From Lophium mytilinum (taxonomy: Eukaryota), in contig MU004197.1 of the NCBI GenBank assembly GCA_010093605.1, forward strand, positions 310,001-374,000: a stretch of 64,000 nucleotides of DNA, read 5' to 3'. The notes under the pieces are model-generated. The model saw only the letters and a program-made list of their open reading frames with translations, ran no database searches and was not told the DNA's origin. Within the stretch, counting starts at the first letter, position 1, and the number at the start of each line of letters is the position of its first letter. Both the position numbers and the translations under genes were made by a program. Shown here in pieces: positions 26,186 through 39,592 of the stretch.

Positions 26186-26306
26186 GTCCGGCACCAAGGA
26201 TCGAACTTGGGTCTTGTCAGGCGGGTCAACTTCTATCCACCTTATAGGTGGACCCGAAAAAATCCTCAAAACCTAACACCATGCTAACCAACTACACCAC
26301 ACCGGG
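26186..26306 (-). ncRNA. tRNA-like element copy 1 (121 nt; non-canonical anticodon arm)
   Basis: Minus strand CCCGGTG-TG-GTGTAGTTGGTTAGCAT...CCTGACA-AGAC-CCAAGTTCGATCCTTGG-TGCCGGA-C; A and B boxes; internal T6 run. Confidence 0.75.
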
Positions 26307-26481
26307 TTAGAGACCACGGTGGTATTGACAGGCTTATGTGCCCATGGCCAGATTTTGGGGGGGGGAGTACGTTCTTATCCTATTGTCGCGTAAACTGACT
26401 TTCCTTTTCTCACAGAATGTTAGCTAGCACAGCAATGCTTTGATGAACATGCAGAATGGCAAAAGAATAAGACTCGTGAAA

Positions 26482-26574
26482 GTCCGGCGCCAAGGATCGA
26501 ACTTGGGTCTTGTCAGGCGGATCCTGCAACAGGCTCCTATCCTGACATATTATAACCGACTAAACCACACCGGA
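26482..26574 (-). ncRNA. tRNA-like element copy 2 (93 nt; complete cloverleaf frame, no U33 anticodon loop)
   Basis: TCCGGTG/CGCCGGA acceptor, D arm, TGTCAGG/CCTGACA stem, AGAC variable loop, CCAAG-TTCGATC-CTTGG T arm. Confidence 0.8.
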
Positions 26575-26704
26575 TTAGACTTGCTGCTGAAAGACGAACC
26601 TCTTAAGCACATGACGATATGACAAGCGTTCGTTCACAGCCTTCATGATATACTATCAACGCTTTAGTCGAGGCCTCATGTGGCAGAAACTAGGGGTCGA
26701 AACA

Positions 26705-26798
26705 GTCCGGCGCCAAGGATCGAACTTGGGTCCTGTAGGCGGATGTGGTGGTCATCCGTAGGGACATATCTCATGCTAGCTAACTACACCACACCGGA
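26705..26798 (-). ncRNA. tRNA-like element copy 3 (94 nt)
   Basis: Acceptor and T arm identical to copy 2; internal hairpin CGGATG/CATCCG in place of the anticodon arm. Confidence 0.75.
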
Positions 26799-27268
26799 TT
26801 GGAGAGAGAGAGAAAAGATAACAGACTTGTATTCCCATAGGTATGGTTTCTGTGCTTAGTCGTTTCTTTAGTGTCCAAAACCTGCTATACGATATCTCTT
26901 CTAGTAGCCCCTAGTGGCGATTTGTTTCCGGGAGCGTGGTGAAAGTGGTTCGGTTCCAACAATAGTTTGTCCGAAGTCGTGTGCCTGAGTGCTTAGTTTG
27001 AACAGAATGGCAAGTGATCACCCCATTCAAACACAGTGGTATTCTTTCAAATCACCACAACTATCCTAGTATAGATATAAGTAAGTATCAAGCGGCTTTT
27101 CTTTCGCAATTCAATTAAACTATGTTTCCCTCGTAGATCTTGCTCTTGTGATTTTCTACATAAGCAGCCAGCCTTCCAGACCTGCAAGTATTGCCACAAC
27201 TGCTGAGGGGTTCCTGGTTTCCTCTTATTTCCAAAGGTCGTCCATTAGCTCAAGATTAAGATATTGAG

Positions 27269-28000
27269 ATGGCAGAAGACAGACTTGGACGTACCCTTCG
27301 CTCTCCTCCGGATCAGCCCAATGAGGATGACAAGCCCAAACATGGCATTGGCAAGAGACCTGCTCAGAACCCTCCAGGAAAGCCTGCAAAAAAGCGTGTC
27401 AGGAGGCGTTCCAGGAGGCCCGCGTCATTGAATGCTCATCCGGATGACAAATATGACAGGAGAAAGCGCGAAGAAGGTGTTGAGAATGGTTTACAAAAGG
27501 GAGACATCATCGAGACGGACCTACGCAGTCCTTTCGTTCGCTTCAGCGACCCGTGCTTCGATACCAAAGCGCTCGGAATGCAGAAGGCCGACGACAAAAT
27601 GGTCGGAGTGACGTGCAAAGCCGTCAAATGCTCTCGCGAGACCGCGCTCTATGTGTACGACGAACGACCATACACCTCCCCAGCCAAAGCAGCATTCATC
27701 CGTACCCATCTCTTCGCTCGCCTGCAGAAGATCAACTCTGCCGAGAATAAGAAAGAAAGGTACCTCCAGCGATCGCTAGCCCAGCAGGCTGATGAGTTGG
27801 TAACGTACCACACTCGCGACAATGGTACTCAACACTATGCCGATTTAAAGCCAGATGAGTCTGAAAAGTGGCACGAATGGGCAGTCTGGATTAGGACAGC
27901 CACGCGGTATGGCTTGATTCATAGAAAGGAAGACGGCTGCGAGTGCTGTAAGGTTGAGCTTCAGAAGAGGTGGCTCTATCCATGGTTGATGATGATTTAG
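27269..28000 (+). CDS. Orphan family paralogue A (243 aa, single exon)
   Basis: Basic NLS-like N-terminus (AKKRVRRRSRR); C-terminal CKAVKC...WAVWIRTATRYGLIH.....CECC. Confidence 0.8.
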   Translation: MAEDRLGRTLRSPPDQPNEDDKPKHGIGKRPAQNPPGKPAKKRVRRRSRRPASLNAHPDDKYDRRKREEGVENGLQKGDIIETDLRSPFVRFSDPCFDTKALGMQKADDKMVGVTCKAVKCSRETALYVYDERPYTSPAKAAFIRTHLFARLQKINSAENKKERYLQRSLAQQADELVTYHTRDNGTQHYADLKPDESEKWHEWAVWIRTATRYGLIHRKEDGCECCKVELQKRWLYPWLMMI

Positions 28001-28458: not shown

Positions 28459-29253
28459 TTACTCTCCGAAAGCCCGCTGGACCTGCTTTTGGAAAGATCC
28501 GTACCGCTCATCTGGGCGATGGAAGAGCCCCGAAGCAGCAGAATTCGCAATCCACTTTGCCCACTCTACATTCGCTCTGACAAAATTAGGATCAAAACCA
28601 CGGTACTCAATATCCAGGGTCTGCACCTCCTCCAAATACCCAGCTAAATAAGTGGAAATTTGGTCGATGGAAGGTATGTTTTGGTCGTTCTTGATGGCCT
28701 TAGCCGTCTCTATGTCATAAAAACGTTCTAGACCCTCCAGCATCCTGTTGCGATGAGCGAGGTTCGAGTTCGGAACGGTGGAGCGGAGTCTGGCGACTTC
28801 CTCCTCGCGACAGTGGTTCTCGCATTGCGTATCACCGGTATGAACGTCGAGTCCTTGCTTCGCAGCCTCGTTATGGGAACTTTGAGGTGGTGCCAAGGCG
28901 GTGAGCGTGTTGGTCTCAGCTGCAACCTATATTATACTTAATCAAATCAGCGCTAGACTCACTTTCATTCTCCCCGGGTACCGTAGAGTTAGATTCTCCA
29001 TCTTTTGCTCGGCATCATCGATGTTCTGAGCTAGAAAGTGCAAAAAGGGCTGGTAGCCTTACCTGGAGGCCTTGGGAGTTTGATCCTTTGGCTGATTTGT
29101 TAGTAGACTTGTTACTCTAATTGAGTGGATTGAAGCCTTGCCTTGCTCTTGTGCGGCCTTTTGCGCGGTTGATGGAATGCTCTTTTGATTTTGGTCGGCC
29201 TCTTTCTGCTTCTGAGTTCTTTTTGGGTCAACGCGGAGGCTGTAAGGTTTCAT
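28459..29253 (-). CDS. Orphan family paralogue B (spliced; internal exons uncertain)
   Basis: N-exon MKPYSLRVDPKRTQKQKEA; last exon CENHC..EVARL..LERFY..DIEYRGFD..WAKW..AASGLFH. Confidence 0.75.
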
Positions 29254-29762
29254 GGTGATAATCGCTTTGGTAAAGAGTTGGCTTCCTGGGAGGGTGTGGA
29301 GTGTGTGCTGATGCCGTTTCTGGCGATGATTGGCAGAGTTGATGGAAGATATCGCTTTGAGCAGCTTACACAGAAGACTCATATAGAGCCAGAGAACAAA
29401 CCTAAGTGGCGAACAGAATGTGTGTCCCCAAGCATGTGACAATTCCACACTGGTGCTCACGCTCACGAGCAAACTATCCACGGCGTCGAACTGACTTATG
29501 GTTTAGTGATTGTGGTCTGCGTGGCCGAAATTGTCCAAATAGCAGTATCACGGGCCTGGCTGGCTTTTCGCCTGATAAATCGAACTAGACTAATACTCTT
29601 TTCGCCAGTGCAATCAAGTGTACTCATTGTCTTTGCTACCATTGTGTGAGACAGAAAAGCGAAGCCGAAGTCAAGCCCCCCCCCCCACAGCTCAACAAAC
29701 GATAATGAAACCTCAAGAAAGAACCCAAACCTAGCAGCTCCACCCCATATCTGTCCTCGCTC

Positions 29763-30818
29763 TCACTCTCCGCAAGCTCGCTTCACCTGCTCTCGAAAGG
29801 ACCCGCACTGTTGATTCGGGCTATGAAATAGTCCAGCTGCTGCAGCGGTGGCCACCCACTTCGCCCACTTCAAACGACTTTCCACAAGGTCAGGGTCGAG
29901 GCCACGGAACTCGAGATCGAAGTACTTCATACTCTCTATGGAGCAGACTAGATCAGTGGCGATCTGTCTCGGAAGTAGCATGGGACTATTGTCGCTGGCG
30001 GTTTTGAAGAGCTGTTTCCGATAAAGGCGCTCCAGGTCATCGAGGAGATCATCACGCCGCTGGAGCACCGCGTCTGGTGCGGCTTCATGGAGTCTGGCGA
30101 TTTCGTCGTCCCTGCAATGAAGAACGCATTGGGTGTCGGAAAGTGTTAGCTGTCCTAACAAAATCGTTTGGAGGTCCTCGACATCAGGATAGGTTGTGCC
30201 ATCGTCATCCGCGACGGCATCATCGGTGGCACTGGAGTGAACTGTTCTTTTCGGAGTAGATGTCTCAGCATCCCCCATGGTGAAGTCTGTTTTGTCCATG
30301 TCCATGCGAGATGCATCCGCGCTTGTGGCCTGGGATTCCTCGGTCACCGAGCTTGAGTTCCGAGCTTGGAATAGGGTGATACTAGTGTCATCTTCATCCG
30401 CTACCTGAGAACCAAGGAATCAGCTTTCTTTTCACCCTCGAGCAACTCAGAGGTACTTACTGTGGTATCATCCACTCCTTGAACGGTATCGTCGACGTCC
30501 TGTGATGGAGTAATGTCACGAAACCCGGCGAAGTCGCGTGCTCGGGGTTCTCGAGAAGGTTGTATCTGTCCCAACATCTGAAACGATCATCAAGTTAGGA
30601 TTGGCTTTGATGAGACTCGGAAATACCCGCTTGCTCACCTGAAGAGTCCCATAGTTCGGAGCCTTGAGCAATTGATCACTGGCACTGCTAATCCAGCTGG
30701 TTGAAGTCTTCCCTGCAGAATTGCTAGACGTTCCGGTAGTAGCATCGATCGGCTTGTCCTCAGCTTCCTTGGCCTTTCGAGACTTCTCTGGCGAGCGGCG
30801 AAGATTGTATGGAGGCAT
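29763..30818 (-). CDS. Orphan family paralogue C (spliced)
   Basis: N-exon MPPYNLRRSPEKSRKAKEA; last exon CVLHC..EIARL..LERLY..DLEFRGLD..WAKW..AAAGLFH.P..QCGSFREQV. Confidence 0.8.
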
Positions 30819-30996
30819 GGTAGAATAAGCTTTGGTATATTGATGAGGCTTCGAGGTGTTATAGATTAAGAATGGGCTTGAATGTCGTTGGCGGTTAGTG
30901 AAGTAGGTGGGATGTAGACTCGAGGAAGTTACAGGGCTGTTTATATGGCAATCGATACAAACCAGAAAGGTGAATATAATATCTGCCCCCAGAAAA

Positions 30997-33900
30997 GGGG
31001 AGGGATAAGCGCACACCCCCTAATTCCTCCACGCACGCCCCCTAATTCCTCCACGCACACCCCCCTATTGTCTAATTATTTTACCACCTTCTAATTAGCT
31101 TGGATTACTGCTCCGGAGCCTCTAAGTGGCTCGCTTAGCTTACGTATAGTTTCTAAATGCCCACTCTATATACAGCGTAGCTATAAATAACTATATTCTT
31201 ATTCTATACCTCTATAATATACTTACTATAAACCTCCTACCGCCGCTATAGTAGTTCTATAACTTCTTAAAGAAAGCTAAGCATGCGCTTATAGAGCACG
31301 TAAAGGCGCATGGCTATAGCTTAGTAAAAACCTACTTAAAGAAGGATAAGAAGGGCCTAGAAGTAAAGAAAGTATAGTTTAAATACTACTTTAGAGGTAT
31401 AATAGAGCCTATAAACTATATATATAGTACCTCTACTAATAGAGTAGACTATAAGATAAATAGTATACTTACTTAGTAGCCTTCTAGCTTTAATAGTAAA
31501 TATATATAGCTATAGAAGATAATAAAGGCCTTTTATAATAACTATTCTACTCTACTTAAATTAATAGTAGTTGCATGTAATAGGAAGCGCTTAGTATTAA
31601 TAAACTAGCTTATTTAAGCTAATGTATTAAGCGGAATAAGGCCTATAGAGACGCACGTAAAGCTGCTTAAGAAGGGGGTAACTATTACTCTAATAGATAT
31701 TAGAAACGAGCGTATATAGTAGCGGAAGAAGCTTCTTAATAGCCTTACACCTATCTAGGCGCTCCTTAATATATTAGAAACCTCTATATTTCTAGCATCT
31801 AATAGCTATAATAGAAAGTATATATATAACTTTATAAAGGATAAGTAGAACTAGATTAAATACCTCTTCTTTATACACCTAGATTCTATTAAAATTCTCT
31901 AATTAAACTATAATATTATACTATTAGATTGCACCTATAAGACTAATAGATTTAGTATACCCTTTCTCTATATTACGGGCGTTACCTATATAAGTAATAA
32001 CTTTAAAATTAGTTACTATTTCCTTCTAAAAGAAAAGAAGATAAACTATAACTAGGTAGTATAGTAGCTCTTTAAGCTCTTTAAGTGCTATTCTATTATA
32101 CTATATATTTTTCTAATAGATAAAGAATAAGCTCTAAGAAACGCACTATATAAGTAATAGCCGAGAGTTCCGCGCCTTCTCTATATATAGTATATTAAAA
32201 AGAACATTATTACTAAGCTAGCTAAGGTATATAAGAAGGAACCTAAGTATACTATAGGTAGCGCGCTGCCTGCGCCTACGCCTATATTAGATAAAGAGAA
32301 GAAAGCTATTAAAAAGAAGAAATAAGAGAAAAGGGGCGCCTTTATTACCCGTTAGATAGCTATAATAAAGCTAGAAGTCCTAGCTTAATTTAAAGAGGCT
32401 TAGAATAAGCTACTTAATAACTATAAGAAGCGCCCTAATCTAGTAAAGTATATAGAGGATAAGTAGTAGCTATATAGATAGAATTAGGCTAGCTACTATA
32501 CTTATATAGCGCGGCACTTTAGTACTATATAAGTAATTTTTCTTAATACTAAGATATCTAAATTTAATGCCTAAACTTTACACGGGGTCTATATACATGC
32601 TAAATAAGTAGTACTAAAGAGAATAAAAGTATAGCTTAAAGAATAACTAAGAAATAAAGAAGTAGTAGAGGTATATAATACTAATTTAATTTCTTATAGT
32701 ATTATATTATAGAATAAGGGCGCGCACGGCTAGCTTAAGGGCTTTCTCTAGGTATTAACTAGCTATCTATTTAATATTCTCCTTAATATATAGAACCTTA
32801 TTCTTACTACTAAAGTAAAGTATAAGAACCTTAAGGTAGTATAGCACGCCCGAACTTATTATAAGGTTAATAAAAAGGAGTTCCGTAATCTTATTAAAAA
32901 GGTAACGCTGTAGACACTTATTTACCTTAAGAAGTAAATTAAAAAGGCGAAATTAAATAAATATAACCCGCGTAACTATACCTAGACTTTTACTTCTATC
33001 TATAGTATACTATGCGCTTATACTCTTTATAATTATCTATACTAAGCGGCTACTACTCTTTCTTCTTTAGATCTAGTGCTCTATATATAACTAGAAGAGA
33101 TAAATTACTATTAGTAGTTTATTTAGCCTAGAGTATATTAGCTAGCTATTTCTTTTAGCCCCTTTAATAAGGTACTTAATCCTGCTATTATTAAGTATTA
33201 TTAGGGCCGCCCTGCTATTATAAGAAGAGGTTATTATATATATAATAATACCTAGAGAGATCTATTAAGATTTAAGATTACTATAGGTATAGGTGCGGTA
33301 GCTAGACCTATAGGTATACCTATAGGACGCACGCTAACAGTTCTACTATTAAAACCGCCTAATTCTATAGCCCCCCGTCTACCTTCTATTACTTAGAGTG
33401 CTTCTTAGTTAGCTGCTATACTAGCTATTATAGATTTTAATAATTTACTTACTAATCTACCTAAGTTTAAGTATATAGTAATATATAGGCCCTTTTCTAT
33501 ACCCGCACCTATTACTATACCTATCGCCGCACCTATTACTATATTTAAGAAGCGTAGCCGGCCTCTTAGTTTAAAGAATAAAGTACTAAGGAAGAAGAGA
33601 GTAGTTATAGATTACTAGAATAGTGCTTATCCTAAGCCTTAGCTAGCTCCTTAGCCTTAGCTAGCTCCTTAGCCTTAAGCAGCGCTAGCGCTGCTTTCTA
33701 TTAAGAAGCTTTAATATTAAATAGCATTATATAATTAGTATATAGAGGGGTTAATAGATTAGAATAGCTAGGGAGGCGCGGCGGCAATATAGGGGGGCTA
33801 GGTTTAATGCGGAGAGGCTGTAATAAGGTAAGAATTTAACTATTTTAGTATACTTATAGGTATATAGGTATATAGATAGTAATATAATAGCCTATATATA

Positions 33901-34218
33901 CTATAGGAAATAGAAAGTATATATAGTAAAATAGGTATACTATATAGCCTTACTATAAGTACGGCCTTACGCACGGCCTATATATATAGCCTTATCTATA
34001 GCCTTATCTATAGCCTTACGCGCAGCTAAATATAGGCTGTTAGAAACGGTAAGAATGCACGATAAAATGGGAAGGCTGTGCAGCCTTACTATTTTAAGCG
34101 CCGGAGCAGTGATCCGAGCCCTCCGGGCTAATTAGAAGATTAGATGATAGGGGGGTGTGCGTGGAGGAATTAGGGGGCGTGCGTGGAGGAATTAGGGGGT
34201 GTGCGCTTATCCCTCCCC
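30997..34218 (+). mobile_element. Mutator (MULE) DNA transposon, full length, inactivated by RIP
   Basis: TIRs GGGGAGGGATAAGCGCAC... (about 72 bp perfect, imperfect further in); 8-9 bp TSD (c)ccagaaaa at both ends; residual transposase motif LLDCTYKTNRF..P at ~31921-31986; TpA-rich, stop-riddled interior. Confidence 0.93.
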
Positions 34219-34731
34219 CCAGAAAATGACTGCGTTAGTCGCAGGTTTTAGGTAGCAGGGGGCCGGGAGTCTTTTCCAGTGAATATGTATGCCCAGTCGA
34301 GGTCATGAGAGCGTGTTTCTAGTAAGTTGGTCGTATTTGCGAAGAAGCAGCTGCCTGTTTAACCGCGTTTGCATTGAAGTCATGGGATTTTCTCGTCTTT
34401 CCTACAAACCTGCGAAGCTACTGGTGCGCCGAGGTTGTAAGGGGGTACGCTATCACGTAGTAAGCTGTGAGGTCGCATTGGGAATGGCTGTCCAGTGACA
34501 CTTATCATTGGAAGTGGCGCAGAAAGGAGCTTTAAAACTGCTGCATTTCAGTCGAGATACCTCTCGTTCCTGTATTGAGTAAAAAATTGATAGCTTGACC
34601 CTTTTGATCGAAACTCGGAAGTAGATCGACCCAGACTCCTCACGAAAATGACAGTACCGCTCAGAAGCAAAACAGAACGTGATACTTCCACAGATACGAA
34701 CAATTTGCCTGACCTTGCTCTGAATCTGCTC

Positions 34732-35982
34732 TTATCGAACCTGGTCTCGAATGGAGACGCATTGCTCATTAGGATAATGAATCAGCCCACCTTCCGCCGC
34801 CTTCCATGCCCAATCCGCCCAAGCTAGACGAGCTTCCACGACAAGAGGATCAAGGTATCGGACCTCAATGTCTTCTTCCTTATGGTCTTTGCGGAATTTG
34901 AACAGATCTTCCGCGACTTCGCTCAAGGGAAGAATAGGTCGGCCCCGCTTTGCAGCCCTCTCTTTTTGTATGCAATACGCGCGGTCGAGATCGTCCAATG
35001 CACAGCCCCTGTATGAAAGACTTCTTGCCGGAGAAGCAGCATACAACCGAGCTGCCTCTTCTTTGGTGCAATGGTGGGGGCAAGGAGGTGCGGACTCTTC
35101 TGGTACCGCTGTTGCGGTTGGCGACTCGAAGTCCTCGCCTGGATATGGAACACTGTCTTCTTCCCCATACGAATCATCGATGACCCTGTCGTCCGGGAAC
35201 TTCCTTTTGAAGCGCAATTTTGCTGGAGCTGTTGGAGATTCCACGTCTTTATCCGCATAGACTGAGTCATCTGGTTCGAAATAGGTGTCATCGATGACCG
35301 TGCCGTCCGGGAATTTCCTCTTCGGTGGCAAGGCTACTGTTTCAATTGGAGCGGCGACACCCTCATTTGGGTCGTTGGGTTCGAAAACAGTTTCTTCAAT
35401 GACGCGGCTGTCATCTAGTGCTGTGAAGGACGGTGTGTCCAGAAGCGTTATTGGCGAGAGGTTAAGGGGGTGATCTCCTCCGTCTTTGTCCGTCGCTAGT
35501 TGTACTTCTGAGCCCTCTCCACCGAACGCTCGTCCAGATCGATGCCTTGATTTGACAGCCTGTGTATCTTGCTCTAGAGACGCCTGTAATTAAGTATATC
35601 AGCCATCTGCAGGCATTGCTCACGGTGCCAGCGGCAGCACTACATTGGGTACTCACAGTGGAAAAAGCTCTCGGAGTTTCTGTGCCGTCGCGACTCTCAG
35701 AGGGGAGCTTATCACGGAATCCAGGAATGTTACGAAATCGAAGCTTTCGCGAGTGTTCTCCATGGTCCAGAATCTAGGCTGTAGTGTCAGCGCGAAAAAA
35801 AAACTAGTTAACAATAGTAGAGGTCAATAATTCCCTACCTGTAATTTCCGAGCGTTCGGAAGTGGTTGACTTGGTTGAGATAACGGAGCATGCGCGGGAG
35901 CTTTGCCTTTTCTACGCTTCTTGGATGCCGGAGCTCTCACATCTTGGTCCTTTAGCTTTCGTGATCGAAGCTCAGGTGGCAT
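34732..35982 (-). CDS. Orphan family paralogue D (spliced)
   Basis: N-exon MPPELRSRK..SKKRRKGK; repeated VI(D/E)(D/E)(T/S) acidic units; CPHHC..EAARL..DIEVRYLD..WADW..AAEGGLIH.P..QCVSIRDQV. Confidence 0.8.
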
Positions 35983-36377
35983 GCTTGTGAGTACGAGGAC
36001 TATATAAAAAGTAGCGGGTAGTAAGCCTGCTAATCTAGTGATGTCGTGGGCTGGTTGCCGATGGTTGTCCGGTGGTGGGGGGCGTGAAGAATAAATAGAA
36101 AGCAACGAGAAGAGCGCCCTTTTCCATACGCGAGATATAAGCTTGGAACAATAAAATAGTACAGTAGCCCTGAAAATTTAAGTTCGTGAATGTCGAGCTA
36201 TCAACTTTACGAACGCAAGGAGTGAAGTATTGGAATAGTGTCTACTCTATGTTCATTAGGCGCACAAAGCCATGTAGTCACTGGTTGACCCAAATTCCCG
36301 CAAATAGCAAAACGCTGCCCCGCTTTAGACATCGCTAGAAACTCAGAAGAGATATTAAGTCCTTGGGCTTGCGAACC

Positions 36378-37462
36378 CTAAGGGTCTCGATCCAGAACCT
36401 GATCGCGGAGCGATCCGCACTGTCCACGTGGGAGGTGGAAGAGACCCGCTTTGGCTGCTTTCACAGCCCACTTCGCCCATTCAGTTTGCGAGTCGACGTA
36501 GTACACATCCAAACCACGATGCTCGATGTCGTTATCTCGATCTCGCATGAGATACCTCGCGTGGTCAGTAGCAATAACGACGAGGGGACGAACCACATAT
36601 CCAGCGTACTTCTCCGCCTTCGCTTGCTCAAGGAGGAAGATCCGCTCGATGCCGTCCAAGATGCAGTTTCGGTACGCAATCTCCGTCCGAGGAGCAATAG
36701 CATGAAGTCGGGTCGCCATATCTTCGTCGCAGTGTCTTGAGCACGCGACTTCAGTCTTGGCGAGGCCGTCCGCAGCTGTCTGGAAGTCCTCGTCCGGATA
36801 CTCCTCGTCGTCTGACTCGAAGTACGTGTCTTGAATCTCCACGCCGTCGAACCTCCCCTTCGGCGTGGACTCTGCGTCAGGCATGGTGATATCTGTCCTG
36901 TCTTGCAGATCAATCTGCGAGATACCCAAGGAGATGACCCCTTCGTCCTCTTCAGTTGCAAGCTCAACCGGTCGACCCTGGGCATCGACTAACTGGCTGC
37001 CCTCCTTCCACACTGAGACAACCCGATCGTCCTTTTCAAAAGGAACATCCTGCTACACACGGACATATTAGATTTTGAGTTATCCTGAAAGGGGGGACAT
37101 CGCCACTTACAGAGGACGGTTCTACTTTAATAGTGGTGGTGTTGTCGGCAATATCGAATTGGCTAGGTTTCTCGCGATACCCAGCCCACTTGTTTCGAGC
37201 GGTGGGGTGGACAGTCAGTGGCACTTGGCCAAGCATCTAATGGAGAAGATTAGTAAAACAGGTCTTTCGTCGTTTCTGACTAAAATGAAGCGCTTACGCC
37301 CAGTGTTTGAAAGTTCGGCAGAGCTGGCTGATGCGAAGGAGCCTTGTAAGTATTTGCTGTATGTTTTCCTCGCGTTCCATTGGGAGCGGCGGGTGCGGTC
37401 TTGAATTCTTGCTCCTTGCGCGCCTTGTGGTCTGCGTTGCGGAGGTTGTATGGGGCCGGCAT
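36378..37462 (-). CDS. Orphan family paralogue E (spliced)
   Basis: N-exon MPAPYNLRNADHKARKEQE; IQDTYFE; CSRHC..ATRL..IERIF..DIEHRGLD..WAKW..AAKAGLFH.P..QCGSLRDQV. Confidence 0.8.
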
Positions 37463-38712
37463 GTTATCTGAGTTGAGTGTAGATTATGTGGGAGAAACGG
37501 CTGGTCAGCAAGGTTTGCGGTTTACTAGTTGCGTAGTTTGTGGAGAGCCAGTTGTTGGTGTTGGTTGCGCTAGTAAGTATGTTATGAAGCTGATTGTAGG
37601 GATTAATGGGTTTATATAGGTAAAAGAAACAAGCGAAGGGCAGTGAACGGAGGGAGCGTGCCTGGACTAGTGGGCTCTAGTGTTGTAGCATCTTGAAGTG
37701 TAAAATTCACATCTAAATTGATTTAGTTTTTTGGGACTTCGTCGGGGATTACTGACGAGAGCCTCGCAAAACGGAGCGTGTCCCCGCTGTGAGTTCTCTA
37801 CGAAATCGCACGCTTGGAGGTGGAGAGGATTGGAGCTTTACTCCTACCGGAGAAAGACGAGTGGATTGCAGTTTAGATTTGGCCCTAGAGAGGTATCTTG
37901 AGCAAGCAGGACTGCGAGCCATATGCGTGGTGCTTGATAGTATAGATTAGCGGGTTCCCAATCCTTACTCCTATGGTTCATCGATGGGATTAGGTCTTAG
38001 AATTGCAGTATAACTTGCATTGGGCCGCAAATACGATCAGATGAGGCAATCCTAGAGTCAGGCAACCCAACAGATTGGTAAGTGCCCGGAATACACCCAG
38101 GGGAGACGGTTATATGCATGATTGGTCGACCGGATCTCGACAACAAAGCGTTTGTTCTATATATAACGCGAGTTAGCATACGCGATCTTCCAGCTGGAAC
38201 GTCGGAAGTTCACCGTCAAGTCTGCCGCCGTACGTAGCCCACTCGGTCAGCCTGATGCGACTTGCTTCTTTGTTTATGTCGTTATTCAGTTCACTGTCTG
38301 GTTTTGCCGTCGTTGCTATAGTAAATAGACTGAAATCTCGGCATAACCGTCAGCACATCTATTATGCCCAAAGAATAGATATATAAGAGTGGACTTACAA
38401 GTTCCCCGTTCTCAGGTCGCCACTCCGCAACCTCCACAACTGCAACACCACCGCGCCAGACCTTCCACACCACATCGACTGAATCTCTGTATAGTATTAT
38501 TATATTACATATCCAATACAAAATGTCTCTCGGCAGGCATGAAAGAGAGATGATGAGGAGGTTCAAGATCCTCCAGCAGCAAGGCCTTGTGCCATCCCCT
38601 CCCCTATTCAGCAAAGAGGTAAGCCAAAATTATCGGAGCAGTGAAGCATATCATTACTAAATGAATACGGCAGGATGATCCCATAGAGGCTGCAGAATCG
38701 CAGCAAGATCCG

Positions 38713-39592
38713 ATGCAGATCCCAGCATGGCGGTCGCGAAAGCCGCTGGCCGATCCCGCCGTCAGTCCACCCGGTCGATCTCTTCGCGAGATTCAGGAAG
38801 CGTTGCGGGCCAACGATAACGAAGAACACGAGCACCCACGGAGGGTAGAGTCACCAATCGACTTCGGCCTGGGAGAGGTAAGTCAATATGGGTGGTATGA
38901 ATCGGAGTTCGAATACTTACATCGTCTAGTCCGACAAAGCAAGTCTTTTGGAGCATGCCCCCTCGCCAACCCGCCCTAGTTTCCGGGCATCTCATACCTT
39001 CGATTCTCCACCGAGCTCAGGCTATGTGCCGAGTACAGCTACAAATCGTATCCCCTCATTCCCAGATACGGATTGGAACCAAGCCCCACTGGCTTTATAC
39101 TTCGAGACGATGAGCCACCTGGTTGATCGTCACCTCATATACTCCGAGATCCGTACCGGCTTGCACTCGAAGCCTGCGGTAGATGGACGATCACCGACCA
39201 CGTGCAGTGTACCCAAAGACGTAACCGAGGCGCACCTTGCTGGTGAAGGGCAGGCTATCGCGCACCGGTCGTCCGCCCAGATCGCCGGCTCTATCGTTCA
39301 AAGGATCGAGAGGATGATTTGTATGGATAGGCAACGGGTTGCGCAGGATTCCGCGTGGGTACATCCAAAGCCTCAGCCCAAGCCACTAAGAGAGATTGTG
39401 GCTGATATGTTCCACTACCTAGAGCAGGCCAAGGAAAAGCGCGTCGCAGCCGGAGAGAGCCCATGGTACGTGGTTCACGAGTTGACCTGGGCCGAATGGA
39501 TTCGCGAGGCGGTCTATACTGGAGTGTGGCATCTCGCGGGAGAGCGGGAGGAGTGCGAGTGTCTCGGTGTGGCCGTGTATGAGGCCGACTGA
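38713..39592 (+). CDS. Orphan family paralogue F (one intron, ~38878-38929)
   Basis: MQIPAWRSRK; splice joins the two ORFs in frame; IERMI..WAEWIREAVYTGVWH......CEC. Confidence 0.75.

Follow-up and report, generated by a model that had tools for sequence, protein, structure and literature searches.

We report that two of six paralogous genes lying close together in a 64,000-nucleotide stretch of the Lophium mytilinum genome (contig MU004197.1, positions 310,001 to 374,000, hereafter the window) start with a peptide containing Y-N-L-R, the core of peptides that dock through an "arginine anchor" on the acidic patch of the histones H2A and H2B. The six genes, referred to as A to F, are paralogues through a common C-terminal domain of about 120 residues, and their motif is narrower than a preliminary description of this DNA had claimed, being a property of one clade and not a family-wide layout. 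The reading that we favour, with a probability of roughly 0.45, is that they form a family of nuclear adaptors in which the ancestor of B, C, D and E gained a YNLR tag, this tag acting in C and E as a weak acidic-patch tether and being degenerate in B and D. The genes and the features of interest are the following.

27269..28000, plus strand: paralogue A, 243 residues, on a divergent branch, with GRTLRS at 27287-27304 (residues 7-12) and a cluster KKRVRRR resembling a nuclear localization signal (NLS)
28459..29253, minus strand: paralogue B, with a short linker, starting MKPYSLR (YSLR at 29244-29233)
29763..30818, minus strand: paralogue C, 312 residues, exons 30818-30639, 30577-30461 and 30404-29763, starting MPPYNLRRS
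30792..30809, minus strand: YNLRRS of C (residues 4-9), candidate acidic-patch anchor
29766..30134, minus strand: family domain of C, five predicted helices and a probable zinc site
34732..35982, minus strand: paralogue D, 370 residues, starting MPPELRSRK (no Tyr), followed by NLS-like KKRRK
36378..37462, minus strand: paralogue E, 321 residues, introns 37297-37237 and 37110-37053, starting MPAPYNLRN
37439..37450, minus strand: YNLR of E (residues 5-8)
38713..39592, plus strand: paralogue F, 275 residues, predicted intron 38878-38929, starting MQIPAWRSRK, the copy most like the widespread form of the family

The N-terminal peptides previously placed at 29253, 30818, 35982 and 37462 on the minus strand and at 38713 on the plus strand, as well as GRTLRS in A, were all retrieved at these positions. 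The claim that a single motif persists across the paralogues was not upheld: exact YNLR is confined to C and E, B has YSLR, D has ELRSR, and A and F fall outside it. Over the whole genome, exact YNLR is found in 2 of the 11 paralogues (C and E) and YxLR in 3 of the 11, the five paralogues located elsewhere on the contig starting with other sequences. The A and F peptides were rejected as examples of the same motif, GRTLRS being replaced by PRRALPA in the A orthologue P0013 and the conserved N-terminus of F, IPAWRSRKPL, being a different peptide. In the tree of the domain (FastTree, 88 domains, midpoint root; 8 rows that were fragments or duplicates from the genome under study were left out), one clade with a support of 0.89 unites B, C, D and E with their orthologues. 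B is the sister of C within it, and A and F branch apart from it. It is plausible that YNLR is a chromatin tether gained by this single lineage-specific clade.

Residues 1-15 of C are identical at 15/15 positions to those of its Mytilinidion orthologue P0004, with 6/15 identities in each of the next two segments of that length and 180/312 (58%) over the end-to-end alignment of the two proteins. YNLR is expected in a given set of first 10 residues with a frequency of about 2e-5 under the family composition, a figure for a motif picked after the fact and whose copies in C, E and P0004 share descent. The peptides might instead be the inherited N-termini of young and partly decaying duplicates, without any specific binding role. 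Signs of decay do exist (many stops in one paralogue, a frameshift in another, ambiguous splicing of B, a D copy that lost the Tyr) and the genome-wide count of the pattern, detailed below, is at chance; the identity of 15/15 across two genera at 58% overall, the YNLR common to C and E despite far-apart linkers, and the in-frame splicing of E described hereafter nevertheless make this reading improbable.

The ATG of C, D and E is in each case the first in frame after a stop. The start of E is the best supported of the array, as both its introns are absent from a contig of X1, a run guessed to be RNA whose contigs skip seven GT-AG introns, which leaves one frame from MPAPYNLRN to the domain. 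An X1 contig also shows the second intron of D (35656-35584) removed; it starts inside the first one (35838-35774), which is a predicted intron. None of A, B and C is covered by an X1 contig, which is uninformative on their expression. A TATA-like box is located 127 nucleotides upstream of C, with no upstream ATG within 200 nucleotides, and the model of C corresponds to the first part of the database protein P0001 (585 residues, hypothetical), in which C and B are joined as one protein. This joined protein was rejected, the stop of C matching the end of the paralogues and B having its own start, and the fusion looks like a gene-calling error in the public annotation. For B, an in-frame ATG occurs 43 codons further upstream and there are 8 candidate splice solutions.

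Part of the case comes from YNLR peptides of known function. In lamin A, YNLRS (residues 579-583) was resolved on the acidic patch by cryo-electron microscopy, with Arg582 as the anchor and named contacts on the patch for each of Y579, N580 and L581 (PMC12527912). The Y-N-L-R core of lamin A lies in a disordered region, as in C and E, and is followed by a Ser bonding H2A E64 where C has Arg and E has Asn (PMC12527912); C and E also differ from lamin A by the position of the motif at the extreme N-terminus, by the absence of a filament rod and of an immunoglobulin (Ig) fold, and by the lack of homology. With the Gag peptide of foamy virus, GGYNLRPR (sequence also given in PMC6021111), the change R540Q abolishes binding and Y537Q causes an approximately five-fold loss (PMC12125541). 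The prototype foamy virus Gag shares with C and E the YNLR core, its Tyr and anchor Arg three residues apart, but continues with a Pro-Arg that C and E lack (although YNLRP occurs inside P0037, another member of the family), and is viral whereas C and E are cellular genes.

A third likeness is to the plant NMCP1/CRWN proteins, in which a conserved RYNLRRS (R/Q/H-YNLR-R/H) is needed for location at the nuclear periphery and to which the YNLRRS of C is identical over six residues, with adjoining basic residues (PMC3935212, PMC6506774). Neither this likeness nor that to lamin A had been named in the preliminary description. YNLR could be a real motif for a non-histone partner, for example one at the nuclear periphery in line with the original description of NMCP1, since the YNLRRS of C matches the consensus needed there and the NMCP passages available name no binding partner (PMC3935212, PMC6506774). 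However, both YNLR peptides with direct binding data bind nucleosomes (PMC12527912, PMC12125541) and the periphery effect could itself act through chromatin. Moreover NMCPs are long coiled-coil lamina proteins, with a demonstrated role in nuclear-periphery location, whereas A to F have no such rod, the longest helix predicted by AlphaFold2 counting 24-25 residues inside the small domain. A non-histone partner appears quite improbable, and a lamin-like role was rejected. LANA (MRLRSG) from Kaposi's sarcoma-associated herpesvirus (KSHV) and cyclin B1 have, as here, an Arg-containing peptide right at the N-terminal tip of a disordered arm, and in cyclin B1 this anchor suffices to bring an otherwise non-chromatin protein to chromosomes (PMC11445581). 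Membership of a LANA-type MxLRSG class was nonetheless rejected, as LRSG is present in none of A to F and ELRSR of D, WRSR of F and TLRSP of A share only two or three residues with the LANA peptide.

The host H2A retains the acidic-patch residues. For residues 1-30 of C together with a yeast-like H2B and a fungal H2A from an intronless gene, the core of which is the same as in the host exon, ESMFold2 predicted a complex with a score of 0.58 (runs 0.57, 0.58 and 0.63), the best of three controls reaching 0.02; the runs share at least 60% of their contacts and the partner's pLDDT (local distance difference test, as predicted) is at least 46. In the calibration, 51 of 78 solved pairs pass the mark, as do 2 of 108 mismatched ones, but the passes at or below 0.60 comprise only 5 of the 78 solved pairs and all 4 passing mismatches (of 180). 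The model provides weak support for a binding of C 1-30 to H2A-H2B. The docking proposed earlier for all six genes is reduced to C and E, for which an acidic-patch anchor is plausible on the grounds of the YNLR core and, for C, of this prediction; it does not extend to A, where the peptide is not conserved, nor to F, which has another peptide in a separate branch, and none of the six carries the LRSG of LANA. As judged from sequence, the case for C as an acidic-patch binder is reasonable.

Several observations weigh against the tether. A survey of solved structures, with 94 anchor sequences, revealed no general arginine-anchor motif (bioRxiv 10.1101/2024.06.26.600687), hence loose likenesses of the LRS or LRSR kind carry little weight. 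The ESMFold2 calibration excludes peptides, the value of 0.58 comes without an interface and hence locates no site, in the H2A E61/D90/E92 pocket or elsewhere, unrelated proteins served as controls in place of scrambled or R-to-A peptides, and memory of solved YNLR peptides may account for the pass. The N-terminus of F, although different, is nearly as conserved as that of C (13/15 identical) and C has a second block, 14/15 identical, in the middle of its linker, so that N-terminal conservation is not particular to YNLR. The motif is confirmed in one orthologue only, P0004 of C: the annotated orthologue of E, P0007, starts downstream of it and misses the first ~17 residues (0/15), by true loss or by a wrong start call. 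Word-index searches, which were length-limited and weak, returned only the query or nothing, and no further orthologue. Patterns of DNA for M-x-x-YNLR and M-x-x-x-YNLR are not enriched genome-wide, with 12 and 10 matches respectively vs 18 for the reversed control of each, and other YNLR variants gave 2/1, 18/30, 20/30 and 34/38 against their reversed controls. Finally, [YF]xLR is found in the first 25 residues of none of 52 distant relatives (those above 200 residues and with a Met start among a distant set of 72, near and distant members being split by similarity), while NLS-like basic clusters are present in 19 of the 52 (shuffle mean 8.1; 0/2000 shuffles reach 19) and an LRSR-type peptide in 1 of the 52 (shuffle mean 0.5).

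The count of 19 in 52 makes the basic clusters a family-wide N-terminal feature, and the N-termini could simply be ordinary nuclear-import signals or generic DNA-binding tails, of which YNLR would be a flank with an incidental likeness to anchors. KKRRK in D and KKRVRRR in A would suit this role, and the RR of carrot NMCP1 RYNLRR overlaps a working NLS, but the change of YNL in the same protein keeps nuclear entry and removes only the peripheral location (PMC3935212). The net charge of the first 30 residues is only +2 in C and in E. Import signals, as is generally known, do not require a Tyr-Asn-Leu order either, and we consider this explanation somewhat unlikely.

Under the favoured reading of a YNLR tether, A to F would descend by old tandem duplication from an unnamed Dothideomycete gene whose product is a protein of the nuclear adaptor type. 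This protein would start with a basic N-terminus, continue with a long disordered linker and end with a small helical C-terminal domain clasped by zinc. The ancestor shared by B, C, D and E would have acquired the N-terminal Y-N-L-R peptide, which in C and E would dock on the H2A-H2B acidic patch in the manner of the lamin A YNLRS, with the Arg as anchor and the Tyr and Leu packing alongside, forming a weak and dynamic tether. The acidic linker of 180 residues would give the domain the reach to meet a protein partner close to chromatin. YSLR in B and ELRSR in D would be weakened versions, and A, F and the paralogues located elsewhere would have ordinary basic import signals or no tail.

The underlying layout, a short basic N-terminus followed by a disordered linker and a folded domain, had been proposed before and is supported by the full-length AlphaFold2 model of P0004, which has no secondary structure before residue 191 (pLDDT mostly 43-61) and a C-terminal domain at pLDDT 90-98; the YNLR motif of C lies in this predicted disordered terminus. 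The idea that the linkers are unalignable was not upheld. Local alignment gives scores of 158 for C/E, 143 for D/E and 86 for C/D (shuffle means 37-39; maxima 80, 64 and 81, respectively), none being reached in 1000 shuffles, and YNLR therefore does not stand out against wholly unalignable sequence. C, D and E have the position of the first intron in common, with a block PNxxTLQ followed by MLGQ around it and then G-F/Y-R, and C and E both have the linker peptide DxTMxDAExSTPK. In C, D and E the linker turns acidic after the mildly basic start, its net charge being about -21 to -23. Most Mytilinidiales members share a linker peptide D-(I/F)-(S/T)-M-x-D-A, present twice in some of them and often with S/T-P-K behind it:

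30290-30250 in C and 36885-36860 in E: D-(I/F)-(S/T)-M-x-D-A peptide, also present in the paralogue locus L011 and in P0006, P0011 and P0037

Between 35331 and 35120, D contains an internally duplicated P-K-R-K-F-P-D-x-x-V-I-D-D unit.

The C-terminal domain, described earlier as an effector domain, is a predicted folded domain with no known activity, and the term "effector" is a supposition. AlphaFold2 (83 sequences) predicts five helices with a mean pLDDT of 95 and a predicted template modelling score (pTM) of 0.88. The near-invariant residues, in domain numbering, are Trp93 (83/83), His104 (82/83), Cys110 and Gly78 (81/83 each) and Cys3 (78/83), together with Trp90, and the six proteins carry the family signature Cys ... 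RLERM-like helix ... W-A-x-W ... G-x-x-H-x5-C. An H-x(5-7)-C-x-C ending is present in 75 of 86 representatives and a C-x-x-H-C at the start of the domain in most of the Mytilinidiales expansion. Owing to the conservation of these Cys and His residues, one zinc site probably joins both ends of the helical bundle. No catalytic pattern was noticed in the domain, which we accordingly read as a protein-interaction module. It matches no Pfam family, no PDB sequence (best E-value 1.5), no structure of the PDB or viral sets by Foldseek at E 0.001, and nothing usable in the ESM Atlas apart from one unnamed ascomycete cluster at 0.77; the best wide VIA-align match (YqeY; Z 6.3, root-mean-square deviation 3.5, 77 aligned) is tied with unrelated bundles. 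These absent matches do not show the fold to be new.

The family set comprises 87 representatives (E-value up to 0.001), of which 30 were looked up by name. They are unnamed hypothetical proteins of Dothideomycetes with the same C-terminal domain behind a disordered N-terminal region, and A to F are members of this family. Named members (P0002-P0087; e.g. KAF2802650.1, CBY01142.1 and OCL13990.1) come from genera that we take to belong to the Pleosporales, Mytilinidiales and Gloniales, and the nearest relatives are from Mytilinidion resinicola. Distant members end with H-x5-C-x-C and have no N-terminal YxLR, unlike the Mytilinidiales expansion with, mostly, its C-x-x-H-C at the domain start. 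Among the representatives, YNLR occurs in 3 of 87, namely the fused model P0001 of L. mytilinum itself, P0004, and P0037, where it is internal (AYNLRP) and absent from the counterpart in the L. mytilinum genome; LRS[RG] occurs in one, as LRSR. Members of the sister branch have T-R-[S/A] peptides (PMTTRAR, MVRTTRAK and MPITRSS in P0011, P0037 and the paralogue at C17:290192, C17 being the contig of the window), which recall other anchor types.

The RYNLRxR pattern was also followed over the genome. Eleven of its 20 matches encode the exact peptide, 5 being in open frames of at least 100 codons and 3 having a Met at most 10 codons upstream; in a first permuted control the counts were 10/17 exact peptides, 2 long frames and a single case with a Met, that one lying inside a long frame, and in a second control they were 1/19, 1 and 0. 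Near-N-terminal RYNLRxR was observed in four unrelated genes, L202 (C2:1684533), L050 (C6:1971890), L201 (C10:1346493) and L029 (C19:1344582), encoding an RBR-type ligase, an F-box-like protein and two small orphans, three of which then have basic clusters. The RBR-type RING-IBR-RING identity and the F-box-like segment were assigned by eye, and a Pfam scan of the 512-residue F-box-like frame gave no match. With such small numbers and predicted starts, these genes are a lead and not evidence. A broader idea, that YNLR followed by R, S or P is a convergent nucleosome-docking label, found in animals (lamin A), plants (NMCP1), foamy viruses and fungi, and here tagging both the B/C/D/E clade and unrelated RYNLRxR proteins, the RBR-type ubiquitin ligase and the F-box-like protein among them, is unlikely; if true, acidic-patch binding would have a motif that can be searched for, contrary to what is thought, and nucleosome binding would be the predicted mode of action of the plant NMCP1 motif.

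The tethering principle is already known, whereas in the open-access literature nothing was found on YNLR in fungi, on the protein family of A to F, or on arginine anchors and the H2A-H2B acidic patch in filamentous fungi, and nothing since 2022 linking CRWN to the nucleosome acidic patch. Acidic-patch binders being thought to have no searchable motif, a fungal YNLR would join lamin A, Gag and possibly NMCP1 as a recurring sub-class. For an unnamed domain family that is spread across Pleosporales and relatives, it would also be the first clue to function, and it would exemplify a lineage-specific gene clade that gained a chromatin tether after duplication. If the reading is false, the locus is another tandem array of orphan genes whose N-termini are basic.

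The array lies between a tRNA-like locus and an MBOAT gene, in a window that also contains an AT-rich block of the repeat-induced point mutation (RIP) type and, according to a Pfam scan, housekeeping genes with introns (WAPL, RFC, MBOAT, cyclophilin and TCP-1). Three tandem tRNA-like copies are located at 26186-26805, immediately upstream of A, one of them being a tRNA-Pro according to ARAGORN. With the five further paralogues on the same contig the genome counts 11. Four of these five lie at C17:15.9-25.6 kb beside a telomeric AT-rich block, among them a domain-only copy and a frameshifted one, and the fifth, interrupted by many stops, is at C17:~290 kb. This total leaves out a weak candidate at C17:292.8 kb (local search E 0.0016), a frame of 280 codons (L017 2819-3661, C17:292819-293658) with a weak domain match (W-x-x-W ... 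G-x-I-H ... C-x-C), possibly a very divergent family member judging from its residues. The domain-only paralogue (L012 206-643, C17:25206-25643) has no disordered arm and is kept in both genera (P0002), which makes it a natural untethered version. In M. resinicola, copies have adjoining accession numbers on two contigs, so that the array predates the split of the two genera.

At F, a 52-nucleotide intron can be read on both strands with a 9-nucleotide offset (38869-38929). An X1 contig removes the minus-strand version (38920-38869), whereas F needs the plus-strand one (38878-38929), which fits the orthologue; the doubt cast by this contig on the first exon of F was dropped as the exon is kept in the orthologue P0015. 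Two more minus-strand introns, 38398-38337 and 38213-38157, were seen between F and E with no long frame, which suggests that F is crossed by a spliced RNA, either an antisense one or a long leader. The gap between C and D is occupied by a transposon relic, about 180 nucleotides upstream of the ATG of C:

30997..34218, no strand assigned: RIP-mutated, AT-rich DNA transposon relic with 80-nucleotide terminal inverted repeats and an 8-bp target duplication

A miniature copy of 650 nucleotides with the same ends (L011 8471-9119, C17:23471-24119) is located inside the second, subtelomeric cluster of the family.

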